This document shows, one piece after another, positions 1 through 63,826 of a stretch of DNA of 64,000 nt. Within the stretch, counting starts at the first letter, position 1. Each line of letters begins with the position of its first letter. The notes below the pieces were generated by a model that searched no databases, was not told the origin of the DNA, and saw only the letters and a program-made list of their open reading frames with translations. A program made the position numbers and the translations under genes. This DNA is from Heptranchias perlo (taxonomy: Eukaryota), in NCBI RefSeq assembly GCF_035084215.1, contig NC_090326.1, positions 24,862,001 to 24,926,000 of the forward strand. Direction: 5' to 3'.

Positions 1-753
1 AATACCGGTGGCCGTTTGTTCAGTGGATGCACTCCAACCTTCTGGAACTTACTGCCCACTTCTCTCCATCTTGCCACCTCCCTCCCTCTTTTCAAGAACA
101 TCCTCAAAGCCCTTTTCTTCAATTGTGGCCTGATTCTTCCCCAATTCTCTACATTTTTGCCCCTGCTCAGCATGCATTGTCTTGTCCTCTTCATAATTTA
201 GAAGACTTTGAGATATCCTTATGCACATTAGGAGCGCTTTGGAAATTCAAGTTGTTTGTTTATCAATGAAATGTGTCACTAGTGTTTCCGTGCAGTAGAT
301 GCAGTTTCACTAATAAGTAATATACGTGGCTGTATTACTCATTGTTAATTAGATATTTCTTATAGGTTTGCAGTGTTTATGCCACAATCCTTTAATCCTT
401 CAGGATTAAATGCTCAAAGAGTTAAATTACGATGACAGGATGGCATAGTACCCAGAAGTAATTTCAAAACTATAATCTTTGGGCTTAGATGACAACCATA
501 AAACCTTCAAAGTTTTGCTTTGTTAATTGTGTTGTTGTCTGAATCCCTTTGGTTGCATTGTTAAAGAAAGAACTGGCATTTCTATAGCTGCTTTCACAAC
601 CTCAGGACGTCTCAAATCACTTCACAGCCAATTAATTAACTTTGAATTGTAATGGCCATTGTTACGTATACATTGTTACCAGGTGATTACTCATTGTTAT
701 TCTAAACAATTTTACAACACCAAGTTATAGTCCAACAATTTTATTTTTAATCC

Positions 754-788
754 CACAAGCTTTCGGGGGCTTTCCCCTTCCTCAGGCG
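754..788 (-). ncRNA. Minimal hammerhead ribozyme motif (left PLE arm)
   Basis: Exact reverse complement of 4235-4269. Confidence 0.8.
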
Positions 789-1011
789 GTGTGGAAATGA
801 CATTTTCGAATCCTTCGCATTTTAAGATCACAGAACAATGCCTGGTGATTACTGCCCGTTGCCAAGGCAATCACAGTGAGCAGACAGAAAGGTGTCACCT
901 AAAAAGGCCACCGAATATACAAACCCCCCAAAAAAAGAGAGAGAGAGAGATAAGGAAGACAGTCAATGACCCGTTATATTAAAAACAGATAACATTTGTT
1001 CACTGGTGGGG

Positions 1012-2553
1012 TTACGTGTAGCGTGACATGAACCCAAGATCCCGGTTGAGGCCGTCCTCATGGGTGCGGAACTTGGCTATCAATTTCTGCTCGACGATTT
1101 TGCGTTGTCGTGTGTCTCGAAGGCCGCCTTGGAGTATGCTTACCCGAAGGTCGGTGGCTGAATGTCCATGACTGCTGAAGTGTTCCCCGACAGGGAGGGA
1201 ACCCTCCTGTTTGGCGATTGTTGCGCGGTGTCCGTTCATCCGTTGTCGCAGCGTCTGCATGGTCTCGCCAATGTACCATGCTCTGGGGCATCCTTTCCTG
1301 CAACGTATGAGGTAGACAACGTTGGCCGAGTCACAGGAGTATGAACCGTGCACCTGGTGGGTGGTGTCCTCTCGTGTGATGGTGGTATCTGTGTCGATGA
1401 TCTGGCATGTTTTGCAGAGGTTACCGTGGCAGGGTTGTGTGGTGTCGTGGACGCTGTTCTCCTGAAGGCTGGGTAATTTGCTGCGAACGATGGTTTGTTT
1501 GAGGTTGGGTGGCTGTTCAAAGGCGAGTAGTGGAGGTGTGGGGATGGCCATAGCGAGGTGTTCGTCATCATTGATGACATGTTGAAGGCTGCGGAGAACA
1601 TGGCGTAGTTTCTCCGCTCCGGGGAAGTACTGGACGACGAAGGGTACTCTGTTGGTTGCGTCCCGTGTTAGTCTTCTGAGGAGGTCTACGCGATTTTTCG
1701 CTGTGGCCCGTCGGAACTGTCGATCGATGAGTCGAGCATCATATCCCGTTCTTACTAGGGCGTCTTTCAGCGTCTGTAGGTGTCCATCGCGTTCCTCCTC
1801 GTCTGAGCAGACCCTGTGTATTCGCAGGGCCTGTCCATAGGGGATGGCCTCTTTGACGTGGTTAGGGTGGAAGCTGGAAAAGTGGAGCATCGTGAGATTG
1901 TCCGTGGGCTTGCGGTAGAGTGAGGTGCTGAGGTGCCCGTCTTTGATGGAGATTCGTGTGTCCAAGAAAGAAACTGATTCTGAGGAGTAGTCCATGGTGA
2001 GCTTGATGGTGGGATGGAACTTGTTGATGTTATCGTGTAGTCTCTTTAGTGATTCCTCACCATGGGTCCATAGAAAGAAAATGTCGTCGATGTATCTGGT
2101 GTATAGTGTTGGTTGGAGGTCCTGTGCAGTGAAGAAGTCCTGCTCGAACTTGTGCATGAAAATGTTGGCGTATTGGGGTGCGAATTTGGTCCCCATGGCT
2201 GTTCCGTGTGTTTGGGTAAAGAACTGGTTATTGATGGTGAAGACATTGTGATCCAGGATGAAGCGGATGAGTTGTAGGATGGCGTCTGGAGATTGGCTGT
2301 TGTTGGTGTTGAGTATTGATGCTGTCGCAGCGATGCCGTCATCGTGGGGGATACTTGTGTAGAGTGCCGAGACGTCCATCGTGGTGAGAAGTGTTCCTGG
2401 TTCAACTGGTCCGTGGGTACTGAGTTTTTGTAGAAAGTCTGTAGTGTCGCGACAGAAGCTGGGGGTTCCCTGTACGATGGGTTTCAGGATGCCCTCAACG
2501 TATCCAGAGAGGTTCTCACACAGGGTTCCATTGCCTGATACGATAGGACGTCC
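1012..2553 (-). CDS. PLE (Neptune-like) RT + Cys linker + GIY-YIG endonuclease ORF, 5'-truncated, uninterrupted (left arm)
   Basis: RT motifs GRPIVS, MDVSALYTSIP, QTHGTAMG and RYIDDIF; linker CHGNLCKTC; endonuclease NVVYLIRC..WYIGET..RMNGH. The Cys-rich linker is characteristic of Neptune-group PLEs. Confidence 0.9.
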   Translation of the reverse strand, partial: GRPIVSGNGTLCENLSGYVEGILKPIVQGTPSFCRDTTDFLQKLSTHGPVEPGTLLTTMDVSALYTSIPHDDGIAATASILNTNNSQSPDAILQLIRFILDHNVFTINNQFFTQTHGTAMGTKFAPQYANIFMHKFEQDFFTAQDLQPTLYTRYIDDIFFLWTHGEESLKRLHDNINKFHPTIKLTMDYSSESVSFLDTRISIKDGHLSTSLYRKPTDNLTMLHFSSFHPNHVKEAIPYGQALRIHRVCSDEEERDGHLQTLKDALVRTGYDARLIDRQFRRATAKNRVDLLRRLTRDATNRVPFVVQYFPGAEKLRHVLRSLQHVINDDEHLAMAIPTPPLLAFEQPPNLKQTIVRSKLPSLQENSVHDTTQPCHGNLCKTCQIIDTDTTITREDTTHQVHGSYSCDSANVVYLIRCRKGCPRAWYIGETMQTLRQRMNGHRATIAKQEGSLPVGEHFSSHGHSATDLRVSILQGGLRDTRQRKIVEQKLIAKFRTHEDGLNRDLGFMSRYT

Positions 2554-2569
2554 GGTTCCATTGCCTGAT

Positions 2570-4003
2570 ACTACAGACTTTCTACAAAAACTCAGTACCC
2601 ACGGACCTGTTGAACCAGGAACACTTCTCACCACGATGGACGTCTCGGCACTCTACACCAGTATCCCCCACGATGACGGCATCGCTGCGACAGCATCAAT
2701 ACTCAACACCAACAACAGCCAATCTCCAGACGCCATCCTACAACTCATCCGCTTCATCCTGGATCACAATGTCTTCACCTTCGATAACCAGTTCTTTACC
2801 CAAACACACGGAACAGCCATGGGGACCAAATTCGCACCCCAATACGCCAACATTTTCATGCACAAGTTCGAGCAGGACTTCTTCACTGCACAGGACCTCC
2901 AACCAACACTATACACCAGATACATCGACGACATTTTCTTTCTATGGACCCATGGTGAGGAATCACTAAAGAGACTACACGATAACATCAACAAGTTCCA
3001 TCCCACCATCAAGCTCACCATGGACTACTCCTCAGAATCAGTTTCTTTCTTGGACACACGAATCTCCATCAAAGACGGGCACCTCAGCACCTCACTCTAC
3101 CGCAAGCCCACGGACAATCTCACAATGCTCCACTTTTCCAGCTTCCACCCTAACCACGTCAAAGAGGCCATCCCCTATGGACAGGCCCTGCGAATACACA
3201 GGGTCTGCTCAGACGAGGAGGAACGTGATGGACACTTACAGACGCTGAAAGACGCCCTAGTAAGAACGGGATATGATGCTCGACTCATCGATCGACAGTT
3301 CCGACGGGCCACAGCGAAAAATCGCGTAGACCTCCTCAGAAGACTAACACGGGACGCAACCAACAGAGTACCCTTTGTCGTCCAGTACTTCCCCGGAGCG
3401 GAGAAACTACGCCATGTTCTCCGCAGCCTTCAACATGTCATCAATGATGACGAACACCTCGCTATGGCCATCCCCACACCTCCACTACTCGCCTTCAAAC
3501 AGCCACCCAACCTCAAACAAACCATCGTTCGCAGCAAATTACCCAGCCTTCAGGAGAACAGCGTCCACGACACCACACAACCCTGCCACGGTAACCTCTG
3601 CAAGACATGCCAGATCATCGACACAGATACCACCATCACACGAGAGGACACCACCCACCAGGTGCACGGTTCATACTCCTGTGACTCGGCCAACGTTGTC
3701 TACCTCATACGTTGCAGGAAAGGATGCCCCAGAGCATGGTACATTGGCGAGACCATGCAGACGCTGCGACAACGGATGAACGGACACCGCGCAACAATCG
3801 CCAAACAGGAGGGTTCTCTTCCTGTCGGGGAACACTTCAGCAGTCATGGACATTCAGCCACCGACCTTCGGGTAAGCATACTCCAAGGCGGCCTTCGAGA
3901 CACACGACAACGCAAAATCGTCGAGCAGAAATTGATAGCCAAGTTCCGCACCCATGAGGACGGCCTCAACCGGGATCTTGGGTTCATGTCACACTACACG
4001 TAA
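2570..4003 (+). CDS. PLE (Neptune-like) RT + GIY-YIG ORF, 5'-truncated, uninterrupted (right arm)
   Basis: Same motifs as the left arm. It differs at only 4 residues (FTFDN/FTINN, FKQ/FEQ, SHY/SRY). The genuine element frame begins near TTDFLQKL. Confidence 0.9.
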   Translation, partial: TTDFLQKLSTHGPVEPGTLLTTMDVSALYTSIPHDDGIAATASILNTNNSQSPDAILQLIRFILDHNVFTFDNQFFTQTHGTAMGTKFAPQYANIFMHKFEQDFFTAQDLQPTLYTRYIDDIFFLWTHGEESLKRLHDNINKFHPTIKLTMDYSSESVSFLDTRISIKDGHLSTSLYRKPTDNLTMLHFSSFHPNHVKEAIPYGQALRIHRVCSDEEERDGHLQTLKDALVRTGYDARLIDRQFRRATAKNRVDLLRRLTRDATNRVPFVVQYFPGAEKLRHVLRSLQHVINDDEHLAMAIPTPPLLAFKQPPNLKQTIVRSKLPSLQENSVHDTTQPCHGNLCKTCQIIDTDTTITREDTTHQVHGSYSCDSANVVYLIRCRKGCPRAWYIGETMQTLRQRMNGHRATIAKQEGSLPVGEHFSSHGHSATDLRVSILQGGLRDTRQRKIVEQKLIAKFRTHEDGLNRDLGFMSHYT

Positions 4004-4234
4004 CCCCACCAGTGAACAAATGTTATCTGTTTTTAATATAACGGGTCATTGACTGTCTTCCTTATCTCTCTCTCTCTCTCTCTCTCTTTTTTTGGGGGGT
4101 TTGTATATTCGGTGGCCTTTTTAGGTGACACCTTTCTGTCTGCTCACTGTGATTGCCTTGGCAACGGGCAGTAATCACCAGGCATTGTTCTGTGATCTTA
4201 AAATGCGAAGGATTCGAAAATGTCATTTCCACAC

Positions 4235-4269
4235 CGCCTGAGGAAGGGGAAAGCCCCCGAAAGCTTGTG
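4235..4269 (+). ncRNA. Minimal type I hammerhead ribozyme motif in PLE 3' region
   Basis: CGC-CUGAGGA-A-GGGG(AAAGC)CCCC-GAAA-GCUU-GUG: conserved core, stem II, short stem I, and a palindromic AAGCUU in place of stem III as in PLE minimal hammerheads. Confidence 0.8.
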
Positions 4270-4380
4270 GGATTAAAAATAAAATTGTTTACAATTGTCA
4301 ACCCCAGTCCATCACCGGCATCTCCACATCATTGTTATTCTAGTCATTCTTTCCCAGGACCTAAAGTTGTGAAACTACTC

Positions 4381-7749: not shown

Positions 7750-8240
7750 TTCCGTAAACTTGAGCTCATCCAAAACTCTGCTGCCCGTAACCAAGTCCTG
7801 TTCACCCATCAGTCCTGTGCTCGCTGACCTACATTGGCTCCTGGTTCTGCAATGCCTCGATTTTAAGATTCTCATCCTTGTTTTCTAATCCCTCGATGGC
7901 CTCGGCCCCTCCCTATCTCTGTAACTTCCTATATCCCTCCGAGATCTCTGCGCTCCTCCAATTCTGACCTCTTGAGCATTACCGATTTTAATTGCTTCAC
8001 CATTGGCGGCCATGCCTTCAGCTGCCTAGGCCCAAAGCCCTGGAAATCCCTCCCTAAACCCCTCTACCTCTCTCCTCCTTTAAGTTGCTCCGTGAAACCT
8101 ACCTCTCTGACCAAGCATTTGGTCACCTGCCATAATGTCTCCTTATGTGGCTCGGTGTCAAATTTTGTGTGTTCACTCCAGAAGCGCCTTGGGATGTTTT
8201 ACTACGTTAAAGGTGCTATATAAATGCAAGTTGTTGTTGT
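7750..8240 (+). mobile_element. L2 LINE 3' fragment
   Basis: LHWL..FKILIL..GGHAFSCLGPKPWKSLP; tail atataaatgcaagttgttgttg. Confidence 0.85.
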
Positions 8241-9579: not shown

Positions 9580-9836
9580 ACATAGTAAAATGTCGCGAGG
9601 CGCTTCACAGGAGCGATTATCAAACAAAAATTGACACCGAGCCATATTAGGAGATATTAGGACAGGTGACCAAAAGTTTGGTCAAAGAGGTAGGTTTTAA
9701 GGAGGGTCTTAAAGGAGGAGAGAGAGGTAGAGAGGCGGAGAGGTTGAGGGAGGGAATTCCAGAGTTTAGGGCCTAGGCAGCTGACGGCATGGCCACCAAT
9801 GGTGGAGTGATGAAAATCGGCAAGAGGCCAGAATTG
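9580..9836 (-). mobile_element. L2 3' fragment
   Basis: Reverse complement of the L2 tail. Confidence 0.8.
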
Positions 9837-11705: not shown

Positions 11706-11814
11706 ACAGAGTATTATTATTATAGAGTGAAATGTGCCAAAAATACAGATCAAAATTTTAAGATCAAAATGAATGAGCTGTGATAGAGAAGGGCGCATAA
11801 ACATTTGAAACAGG

Positions 11815-12925
11815 AGGGAGCAGGGCAGTGGGATTAATTTTGAATTGATACAGGGCTATGGGGAGAGAACAGGCCAATGGATTAGGTTTAGATTGATACA
11901 GGGCTATGGGGAGAGAGTGAGGCAGTATGATTCGTCTTGGATTGATACAAGGCCATGGGAAGAGAGCAGGGCATTGGGATTCATTTTGAATTGATACATG
12001 GTTATGGCCAGAGGCTGGGGCAATGGGATTAGTTTTGGACCAGTACAGGGCTATGAGGAGATAGTGGAGGAGTGGGATTAGTTTTGGACTGGTTCAAGGC
12101 TATGGGGAAAGAGCAGGGCAGTGGGATTAGTTTTGGATTGATACAGGGCTATGGGGAGAGAGAGGGCAGTGGGATTAGTTTTGGATTGATACAGGGCTAT
12201 GGGGAGAGAGTAGGGCAGTGGATTAGGTTTAGATTGATACAGGGCTATGGAGATAGAGAGAGTGGGGCAGCGGGATTAGTTTGGGATTGATACAGGGCTA
12301 TAGGGAGAGAGTGGGGCAGTGGGATTAGTTTGGGATTGATATAGGGCTATAGGGAGAGAGTGGGGCAGTGGGATAAGTTTGGGATTGATACAGGTCTATG
12401 GGGAGAGAGTGGGGCCGTGGGATTATTTTGGGATTGATACAGGGCTATAGGGAGAGAATGGGGCAGTGGGATACGTTTGGGATTGATACAGGGCTACGGG
12501 GAGAGAGTGGGGCAGTGGGATTAGTTTGGGATTGATACAGGGTTATAGGGAGAGAATGGGGCAGTGGGATTAGTTTGGGATTGATACAGGGCTACGGGGG
12601 AGAGAGTGGGGCAGTGGGATTAGTTTGGGATTGATACAGGGTTATAGGGAGAGAATGGGGCGGTGGGATTAGTTTGGGATTGATACAGGGCTACGGGGAG
12701 AGAGTGGGGCAGTGGGATTAGTTTGGGATTGATACAGGGTTATAGGGAGAGAATGGGGCGGTGGGATTAGTTTGGGATTGATATGGGGCAGTGGGATTAG
12801 TTTGGGATTGATACAGGGCTATAGGGAGAGAGTGGGGCAATGGGATTAGTTTGGGATTGCTCCAGCAAAGAGCCAGCTCAGATGCGATGGGCCAAATGGC
12901 CGTCTCATGTGCTGTGAACCTCTGG
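11815..12925 (+). repeat. 49-bp G-rich minisatellite (~21 units) ending in a CR1 3' tail
   Basis: Unit GGGATTAGTTTGGGATTGATACAGGGCTAT(A/G)GGGAGAGAGTGGGGCAGT with starts at 12272, 12321 and 12370. It runs into gctccagcaaagagccagc..gggccaaatggcc. Confidence 0.9.
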
Positions 12926-47652: not shown

Positions 47653-48340
47653 AACATCAACATCCTGGGGGTCACCATTGACCAGAAACTTAACTGGACC
47701 AGCCACATAAATACTGTGGCTACAAGAGCAGGTCAGAGGCTGGGTATTCTGCGGCCAGTGACTCACCTCCTGACTCCCCAAAGCCTTTCCACCATGTACA
47801 AGGCACAAGTCAGGAGTGTGATGGAATATTCTCCACTTGCCTGGATGAGAACAGCTCCAACAACATTCAAGAAGCTCGACACCATCTGGGACAAAGCAGC
47901 CCGCTTGATTGGCACCCTATCCACCACCCTAAACATTCACTCCCTTCATCACCGGCGCACCGTGGCTGCAGTGTGTACTATCTACAGGATGCACTGCAGC
48001 AACTCGCCAAGGCTTCTTCGACAGCACCTCCCAAACCCGCGACCTCTACCACCTAGAAGGACAAGGGCAGCAGGCCCATGGGAACAACACCAACTGCACG
48101 TTCCCCTCCAAGTCACACACCATCCCAGCTTGGAAATATTTCACCGTTCCTTCATCGTCACTGGGTCAAAATCCTGGAACTCCCTACCTAACAGCACTGT
48201 GGGAGTACCTTCACCACATGGACTGCAGCGGTTCAAGAAGGCGGCTCACCACCACCTTCTCAAGGGCAATTAGGGATGGGCAATAAAAATGCTGGCCTTG
48301 CCAGCGACGCCCACATCCCATGAATGAATTTTAAAAAAAT
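47653..48340 (+). mobile_element. RTE-X-like LINE 3' fragment
   Basis: Homologous to 16565-17230 (YKAQVRSVMEYSPLAW). Confidence 0.85.
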
Positions 48341-48419
48341 TATTCATTCTCTTTCTGGAACTTTCTCTGCCCCGACAATCTACAGACTTAAAAGCCATAT
48401 TTGATGTAGCCCAATCATT

Positions 48420-48670
48420 TTTTAAAAATTCATTCTTGGGATACGGGCGTCACTAGCAAGGCACCAATTATTGCCCATCCCTAGTTGCCCTTGAGAAAGT
48501 GGTGGTGGGCCATCTTCTTGAATTGCTGCAGTCCGTGTAGTGAAGGTGCTCCCACAATGCAATTAGATAGGGAGTTCCAGGATTTTGACTCAGCAACGAT
48601 GAAGGAACAGCGTTAAATGTCCAAGTCAGGATGGTGTGTGACTTGTTGGGGAACATGGTGATGGTGATGG
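48420..48670 (-). mobile_element. RTE-X-like LINE 3' fragment, tail-to-tail with the previous copy
   Basis: Reverse complement of the same 3' tail. Confidence 0.8.
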
Positions 48671-61980: not shown

Positions 61981-63826
61981 ATGGAGCAGCACAGGGGCAA
62001 GGCTGCTCCAAGATTCAGTGTCGCCTCACTTGAGGTGCTGCTGGCCGGAGTGAGGGGGAGGAGGGAACTATTTTACCCAGGAGGAAGTGCCCTGCCTCTT
62101 CCACTAAGAAGGCCTCGCTCAAGGTGGCAGAGGAGATCACCAGCAGCAGCAATATCTCCCGCACCTGGGTCCAGTGCAGGCAGCGATTCAATGACCTAAC
62201 TAGGTCAGTAAAAGTGAGTACACTTACTCATTCTCCTACATTCAGTGTTGCACATCACCAACTCCCCCAAACACTCATTCTGCACTGCCAAGACTACTCC
62301 ATCACATCACTCCTCACACCCACTTAAGGCTCATCCTCAACTTACCTGCACTTCCTCACCTCCCCATTAGTCACCCCACCACTACCACTCACCTGATCAA
62401 TGTGATGTCCCTGTCTCATACTCACCCTCTGATGCACCTCTTCCATGGTCAGCCTCACCCAAACCAATGCATTCATCGGCTGACCATTTCGCCATCACTC
62501 ACTCACATGTCTGTACTTTTTCCCCTTGTAGGAGAAGAAAGCGCAAAATGCTCACGAGAGGGCGAGAACTGGAGGGGGGTCTCCACAAATATTGGTCCTC
62601 ACAGAGGCAGAGGAGGAGGCCCTGGAGATCAGCCGCACCCTCGAGTGTCTGTCAGTTGGGGACGCCGAGACTGGCACCCCACAAACATCTGGTGACACAA
62701 CTTTAACATTCATCACACACAACATGAATTGATCACCGGCATCTCCACATCACCGGCATCTCCACATCTCAACATCACCGGCATCTCCACATCATAACAT
62801 GAATTGATGTTAAGATTGATTGGCATGTTGAACACCTCAGTATGCTCATCGCAACATGACACATCTGTGATGATGCTTAATATTGCCCTCTGTTCTTCTA
62901 CAGGCCCTTCAACGACTGCAGTGATGGGAGAGGGCGATTCCTCAGAGTACCTGCCGGCCTCTGAGAGCGCATGGTCATCCACCAGCGCAGATACTCACAC
63001 TCGGTGGGCCCTAGTAGTCAGTTAATTGGGTTGGCACCTGGTGAGCACAAGCAGACACTGGTGGCAGGGGCAACTGTGGAGAGTCCATGTCGGTGGGAGC
63101 ACTCTTCTCCAGGCTCTGCTCAGCTGGACACAGATGCTGAATCCTGGGGGCCATCCTTTTAAAGGAGAATGATCCAGGGACAGCAGTATATTTGAGAGGT
63201 ACTGGAACAGGTGCCATGTACACTCTCCACAATAGCGCAGAGGAGCCCACCTCCTACATTAGTGGAATAGTGGTCCAGGTAAGTGCGGGAATGTCTGTGA
63301 TGGAGGAAAGGCTAGCCTCCATTGAGCTTCAAGCACGGCTCACAAATGAGTCCATTCAGGCCCTGACAACGGCCGTTCGGGCTCAGGGTGAACAACATTA
63401 TGCCGCTGTAAACAGGCTGACAGAAACTTTACAACTAGGCTTCCAAGACTTCACACATGTCCTCCAAACTGTCGTCCAGCAGAGTGGTAGGAGTGATCTG
63501 GGCCTGGCCCAGGGGAGGGATGATGGCGAAAGGGGACATGGAAGTGGGGACACCACTCAAAGCCCTCCCATGTCTCACCCGTTGCCCCCCTCTCAACCAG
63601 TACCCGCAATGCTGCCTCCTCTACAGGTGGCTGAGTCTGCCCCTGCACAAGTGCAGGTGGAGCAGTCTTTGGAGGGGCCCTAACGGGCTCCAAAACCCAG
63701 AGGCGTAGGCCGAAAGCATCTAAGCAGTCAGGGCATGAACATGAGCAACCTGCCACTACCTCTGCTGCAGCCACAAGGGTTGCGCCACGTAAAAGTAGTA
63801 AGAAGAGAAAGGCTAAGGTTTTGTGA
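61981..63826 (+). pseudogene. Decayed 3-exon Harbinger Myb/SANT-like DNA-binding gene (exons ~61981-62213, 62532-62691, 62904-63826)
   Basis: MEQHRGKAAPRFSVASLEVLL..., RTWVQCRQRFNDLTR|gtgagt, ag|EKKAQNAHERARTGGG..LTEAEEEALEI, a coiled-coil-like segment and a basic C-terminus (KSSKKRKAKVL*). Contains frameshifts and stops. Confidence 0.8.
62734..62795 (+). mobile_element. Micro-insertion of tandem PLE 3'-terminal units
   Basis: (CACCGGCATCTCCACAT)x2 + CTCAACAT + CACCGGCATCTCCACATCAT. The unit is identical to the PLE terminus at 4313-4332. TSD AACATGAATTGAT at 62721-62733 and 62796-62808. Confidence 0.85.

Follow-up and report, generated by a model that had tools for sequence, protein, structure and literature searches.

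Head-to-head insertions of a Penelope-like element in Heptranchias perlo combine one tailed and one tail-less arm within a single target-site duplication

Background

In the available text of Craig et al. 2021 (PMC8557442), an inverted 5'-truncated partner and a one-sided tail of 30-40 bp are described as typical of Penelope-like elements (PLEs), and the formation of PLE tandem and inverted structures is named as unexplained. Self-priming was proposed for PLEs in the available part of Arkhipova et al. 2013 (PMC3846280). The PLE Poseidon PAc of Anolis was shown in vitro to cut and extend both target strands and to begin reverse transcription at two neighbouring sites on the RNA, which delimit the tail; a dimer is predicted for it (Frangieh et al. 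2024, PMC11167929). The main text of that paper draws no link between two-strand extension and head-to-head insertions. Here we describe a palindromic PLE insertion in 64,000 nucleotides of the genome of Heptranchias perlo (NC_090326.1, positions 24,862,001 to 24,926,000; hereafter the window) together with the family to which it belongs, in which one arm of each pair almost always ends in a tail and the other does not.

A further point of comparison is L1 twin priming, in which the second nick of the target serves to prime an additional, inverted cDNA inside one target-site duplication (TSD), while the inverted and direct parts do not overlap. The insertion studied here is similar in that a second nick would prime an inverted cDNA inside one TSD. 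It differs from L1 in that the starts of its arms lie within ~37 nt and the arms overlap throughout the length that they share, which at this locus is 1.7 kb.

Results and discussion

Layout of the focal insertion

The focal insertion consists of two head-to-head, 5'-truncated arms that encode reverse transcriptase (RT) and GIY-YIG domains, with their 3' ends pointing outward, within one duplication. Its features are as follows.

691..704, + strand: left TSD, maximally 14 bp; its final 2 bases also fit the element end
705..2555, - strand: left arm, the longer, tail-less, 5'-truncated PLE copy, from column 1133 onward of the 2,988-nt unit
1012..2555, - strand: truncated open reading frame (ORF) of the left arm, with RT core (YIDD), CX4CXXC linker and GIY-YIG endonuclease
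2554..2571, + strand: 18-nt direct copy of 2524-2541, with 2-nt overlaps (GG and AC) to the two arms
2570..4328, + strand: right arm, the shorter, tailed, 5'-truncated PLE copy, from about column 1243 onward
2570..4003, + strand: truncated ORF of the right arm, frame open
4281..4290, + strand: position of the 29-bp right-arm deletion, which lies between two AAAATTGTT repeats
about 4296..4332, + strand: PLE tail (~37 nt), right arm only; its last 4 bases overlap the TSD
4329..4342, + strand: right TSD, matching the left TSD

An earlier note, made from the sequence alone, had described this locus as a palindrome created by one event within one TSD. In the window, TCATTGTTATTCTA is found at 691-704 and 4329-4342 exclusively; the flanks of the two inverted arms differ and no inner TSD is present. 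That a single event was involved is borne out by the TSD, which is of family-typical length, and by the recurrence of this layout at 34 of the 45 long-arm loci (see below). The 14 bp given for the duplication is the maximal match, but TCAT of the right TSD and TA of the left TSD also match the element, and the true duplication may therefore be shorter; the family mode is 12-13 bp, and our TSD-scoring script gave 13 for this locus.

Alignment of the arms (734-2448 against 2567-4289) recovered all of the differences that had been reported: 14 substitutions (0.8%), (TC)7 versus (TC)11 as the sole indel (8 nt), and two open frames, which differ at 4 amino acids. A fifteenth substitution (2446/2569) is not part of the right arm proper but of the overlap at the junction. 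The insertion had been called young on these grounds, and this holds in a relative sense, but some copies of a sister subfamily are only 0-0.1% apart. Both arms do keep their 3' UTRs, as had been stated, but their 3' ends are different: the right-arm tail extends to the ORF start codon of the next unit, while the left arm stops at the tail-less end, and the 29-bp deletion is confined to the right arm. The same deletion occurs in one other copy genome-wide (L107). It was considered as a marker of the source copy and rejected, as L107 shares no allele with the right arm but two with the left; the two deletions probably reflect independent slippage.

Coding capacity and classification of the element

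In profile searches the RT was recovered above the cut-off (RVT_1, E=2e-10), and GIY-YIG scored 21.8 bits (E=2.4e-4), 0.8 bit below the Pfam cut-off of 22.6. A complete 891-aa single ORF with RT and C-terminal GIY-YIG is present in five natural copies (L032, L036, L038, L044 and L059). That of L032 contains DKG at 296, GTKF at 499, YIDD at 532 and the linker CHGNLCKTC at 753, plus YIG. Pseudo-LTRs (pLTRs) formed by partial tandems are found in L032, L035, L036, L044, L059 and L107, and none in the truncated focal copy. The 3' untranslated region (UTR) of each focal arm carries what we take to be a candidate hammerhead-like core (760..785, - strand; 4238..4263, + strand), a motif for which an Rfam scan gave no match and predicted folds were no better than those of shuffled sequences. 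A search of solved structures returned no match at E 0.01.

DKG and GxKF are given as motifs of endonuclease-positive (EN+) PLEs in the available text of PMC8557442, where a CX2-5CxxC zinc-finger-like linker before the endonuclease marks the Neptune and Nematis clades. Such a linker is present here, and by this motif we would class the element as a Neptune-type PLE, although the motif is common to Neptune and Nematis and separates neither. As far as the available portions of PMC8557442 and PMC3846280 describe canonical EN+ PLEs, the family resembles them in its RT and C-terminal GIY-YIG ORF, DKG/GxKF motifs, partial tandems, inverted 5'-truncated partner, one-end tail and unit-wide TSD. It differs in the size of the inverted partner (1.7 kb here, about a pLTR there) and in the TSD (a tight 12-13 bp here, 8-10 bp in the rotifer examples). 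The likeness to Poseidon PAc (PMC11167929) lies in the use of both strands, two adjacent RT starts that bound the tail, AT-rich targets and short or no element-target overlap. In PAc, however, the start sites are inside the ORF, while here the tail ends at the start codon, and the present element has the CX4CXXC linker.

Abundance of the family and frequency of the head-to-head structure

A 31-mer of the family 3' end has 63,321 exact matches in the 3.25 Gb genome, and a 34-mer extending into the tail has 30,313, about half as many, although the two patterns differ. We examined 96 stretches, of which 45 were chosen by similarity to the two focal arms (a set biased to long arms that includes the focal locus) and 51 came from the surroundings of the first 100 hits to the pattern on contig C1, with some duplicated-array hits and a few others skipped. 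Thirty-four of the 45 long-arm loci are two-armed, and in 11 of them, i.e. 10 besides the focal locus, both arms reach at least 1.7 kb. Among position-sampled clusters with a recognised end, minus-then-plus segments occur in 27 of 58, with both ends recognised in 24. Neighbouring pairs among the first 63 listed hits were head-to-head in 17 cases and tail-to-tail in 2. The head-to-head structure is thus the norm of this PLE family and the focal locus is ordinary. The rarity implied by the earlier note does not hold; the layout is typical of PLEs in the available text of PMC8557442.

The sister subfamily is 93% identical. Near-full-length tandem and inverted arrays of it occur at L097, L098, L120 and L121 (G000:C1:3.12 Mb and 4.44-4.47 Mb), with a spacing of about 3,081 bp; the array copies are 0-0.1% apart, so this subfamily was very recently active. 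Its designation as an older subfamily was rejected because it contains very young copies, and alleles could therefore not be polarised.

One tailed and one tail-less end

Sixty-one two-armed clusters had both outer ends recognised and were counted; those with a single recognised end were left out. Sixty of the 61 have one tailed and one tail-less end. The sole exception, L049, lies inside a larger host inverted duplication (L049:252-9655, ~4.6 kb per arm, flanks included) that is centred on the PLE junction. TSD lengths in the 61 clusters are 12 bp (28 clusters), 13 (21), 14 (4), 15 (3), 16 (2) and 11, 8 and 6 (one each), some of them counted with one mismatch, and the TSDs are 72% AT. Overlap between element end and target is short or absent.

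Either type of arm may be the longer one: the tail-less arm in 26 pairs, the tailed arm in 17 and neither in 17, where the arms are about equal (26 versus 17, p=0.22; the lengths of short sister-subfamily arms are underestimated). The corresponding split in the long-arm set is 20/12/1. In 26 of the 43 unequal pairs, including the focal one, a long arm without a tail stands opposite a short arm with a tail. Each arm then has sequence that its partner lacks and cannot simply have been copied from it.

In some insertions one arm is reduced to the tail or nearly so. At L034:3202-3310, a 13-bp TSD encloses a 90-bp tail-less arm whose partner is nothing but ~13 nt of tail, and at L119:460-640 and L123:410-560 the partner arm is mostly tail, again inside the TSD. 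Such partners would be a direct sign of second priming.

Other unusual ends were also observed. In the window itself, at 62721-62808, a 13-bp duplication (AACATGAATTGAT) surrounds 62 bp in which the final ~17 nt of the PLE tail stand three times in head-to-tail order, together with a short spacer. Telomerase-like slippage on a CATCA repeat, with one short stretch of RNA copied again and again, would give such a product; a doubled tail end was found at 3 places genome-wide. In two single-armed copies (L111:6570-6711 and the 5' end of L121), 116-137 bp of templated, partly repeated filler built from flank sequence separates the TSD from the 5' end.

Central junctions

Among 34 central junctions there are 15 with an overlap of 1-5 nt, 3 blunt ones, 10 with 1-9 extra bases and 6 with longer inserts, most of which are copies of nearby element sequence or remnants of a pLTR. 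At the focal centre, the direct copy and its overlaps would be explained by slippage or templated insertion followed by a microhomology join. RT slippage and host end-joining may each account for this centre and are indistinguishable there.

Divergence between paired arms

Paired arms were compared over 33 pairs and 36,986 columns with the microsatellite masked. Divergence within pairs is 0.87%, versus 1.50% for 1,583 outsider pairs, and shared minor alleles number 3.9 per kb within pairs versus 0.45 per kb among outsiders. For 28 of the 44 arms with at least 600 shared columns, no other arm is closer than the partner. A random draw of two RNAs with no later change is therefore an unlikely origin. 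With L049 dropped (32 pairs), non-CpG polymorphic sites are least often discordant close to the start sites, with 10 discordances seen versus 80 expected, and more often further in (18 versus 47; p=0.005). Five long pairs (L035, L051, L057, L061 and L109) have zero discordance at columns polymorphic in at least two other loci.

Many discordant alleles are alleles of the sister subfamily, and subfamily A arms carry B alleles in 197 of 3,427 diagnostic cells, with 11 third alleles. No clear bias of discordant alleles was found to the tail arm (22/17) or to the long arm (25/14). Polishing errors could add to the discordance signal. On these allele patterns, a common starting RNA with later switches or conversion appears to fit best. 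The earlier note had proposed that arm-specific polymorphisms would tell two source RNAs from private decay; the outcome is mixed, with sister-subfamily alleles and shared alleles side by side. Patchworks of subfamily A and B alleles were also seen at L054:6125-8172 and L071:4970-6295; L054 is a compound insertion of four segments inside one 13-bp TSD.

Proposed mechanism and alternatives

The focal locus is probably a standard head-to-head insertion of an abundant Neptune-type PLE, in which both target strands are cut and both 3' ends prime reverse transcription. The endonuclease would cut the two strands about 12-13 bp apart; one 3' end would prime from the tail-less start site and the other from the tail start site ~37 nt downstream. 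The left arm would be the cDNA grown from the top-strand nick and the right arm that grown from the bottom-strand nick, both beginning on one shared RNA molecule, or else on transcripts that come from a single source locus, with a dimer probably holding them, and each ending at its own point. At the focal centre, the top-strand cDNA may have slipped back 30 nt, recopied 16-18 nt and then annealed to the bottom-strand cDNA through the 2-nt AC overlap, with gaps filled afterwards. Less firmly, arm differences at family-polymorphic sites might have arisen when the RT switched template to other RNAs, or by gene conversion at a later time. The earlier note had offered two routes, priming from both nicked strands or a cDNA that folded back and copied itself. 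The presence of a tail on the short arm and its absence from the long arm argues against plain fold-back and favours priming from both nicks.

Several observations weigh against priming from both nicks on a common RNA. No aligned inverted partner is present in 31 of the 58 position-sampled clusters, and PMC11167929 found no strand difference in start site in vitro and does not report strict pairing of tail and tail-less ends. At family-polymorphic columns, 36 non-CpG discordances were seen versus 1.3 expected by chance, and they often form short clusters. The focal pair is among the more discordant: 6 of its 14 differences are sister-subfamily alleles, its arms share just two minor alleles (both CpG transitions, one in no other arm), and it looks more like the product of two templates than most pairs do. 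These data could be accommodated if both nicks primed on two independent dimer-held RNAs and arm-to-arm gene conversion in the palindrome later made the arms partly alike. Such a history would also suit the B alleles in subfamily A arms, the different sister-subfamily allele sets of the two focal arms, the interspersion of shared-private and discordant alleles within the same pairs, and the lack of correlation between discordance and private differences (rho 0.12, p=0.61, n=20). We nevertheless consider it rather unlikely, as concordance peaks beside the 3' start sites, the five long pairs named above are free of discordance at the columns considered, and strict pairing of tail and tail-less ends would be easier with one RNA carrying both sites.

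The central overlaps of 1-5 nt fit fold-back as well as end-joining, and the ratios of short to long arm length are compatible with a uniform distribution (p=0.19), as fold-back would also give; both points likewise count against priming from both nicks. In a self-priming scheme, one cDNA or antisense template would copy itself, and the tail would be trimmed off one end or added by short second priming at resolution. The relatedness of the arms and the 17 pairs in which the tail-less arm is nested in the tailed arm agree with such a scheme, as do the self-priming proposed in the available text of PMC3846280 and the endonuclease-mediated resolution to which the tail is ascribed in that of PMC8557442. 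It is improbable, however, given the arm-specific sequence in 26 of 43 unequal pairs and the tail-only partners, which have nothing in common with the other arm; blunt or insertion-bearing junctions are also at least as frequent as overlaps (19 of 34). Fold-back would be viable only as a hybrid with second priming, or as a free hairpin trimmed at either end. Least credible is an assembly artefact or a pair of independent insertions at one site. In its favour, and against our explanation, one may note that contigs at 99% likeness from four runs of one sample include none over 2556-2564, but such contigs drop rare branches and their absence counts neither way; polishing errors could also explain some single-site sister-subfamily alleles. 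Yet the arms are unlike in sequence, in length and in the type of end, their flanks are different, they share one TSD of family-typical length with none inside, and the same rule is seen in 60 of 61 loci. An artefact at the focal palindrome is unlikely because of this asymmetry and the family-wide rule. The left junction is moreover matched by contigs from two runs of one sample, which agree with 300-726 with zero differences; they reach 22 bases past the TSD and so fall short of our bridging rule of 31 bases. No joints skipping the insertion, as expected of an empty allele, were seen among the 15 shown of 441, an uninformative sample.

Other repeats in the window

Three further repeats were noted. 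An imperfect palindrome of 585 bp (48085-48669, 77%) consists of two inverted copies of another repeat, which is not of the focal PLE family. An inverted pair of ~200-bp repeat segments (7979-8171 and 9621-9823) is 84-86% complementary, the two segments lying about 1.5 kb apart. Tandem repeats of about 97 bp with 77-85% identity form an array at 11813-12865, with strong G skew nearby.

Conclusions

These counts provide family-level evidence that suggests priming from both nicks at two different start sites. The two start sites and both-strand extension of PMC11167929 fit the one-tail rule, whereas simple self-priming, as far as it is set out in the available text of PMC3846280, needs an added second priming or trimming. 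Compared with the accessible descriptions of canonical EN+ PLEs, the pairing has been counted here, and its 60 of 61 cases speak for dual priming instead of the self-priming proposed there. No published statement of the one-tail rule was found in the available literature, including PMC8969392, PMC9977147 and bioRxiv 10.64898/2026.07.22.740005, a search outside which lay older subscription reviews and the supplementary figures of PMC11167929.

As a tentative generalisation, PLEs may integrate by obligate asymmetric twin priming: a dimer would cut the strands 12-13 bp apart, and its two RTs, each from a fixed start site of its own on one RNA, would copy that RNA twice and switch to co-bound RNAs often enough to produce a reticulate family. 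If this is true, the head-to-head palindrome and the one-sided tail are one outcome of one reaction, which would replace the published self-priming. The one-tail rule, which holds whichever arm is longer, the tail-only partners and the fixed stagger connect the start sites known in vitro with the two strands of the target in vivo, and the tens of thousands of family copies give counts that bear on how PLE inverted structures form. For the genome of H. perlo, about 30,000 family insertions would, in a sizeable fraction of cases, each give rise to short or long inverted repeats, at the rate seen in the position-sampled clusters (27 of 58).

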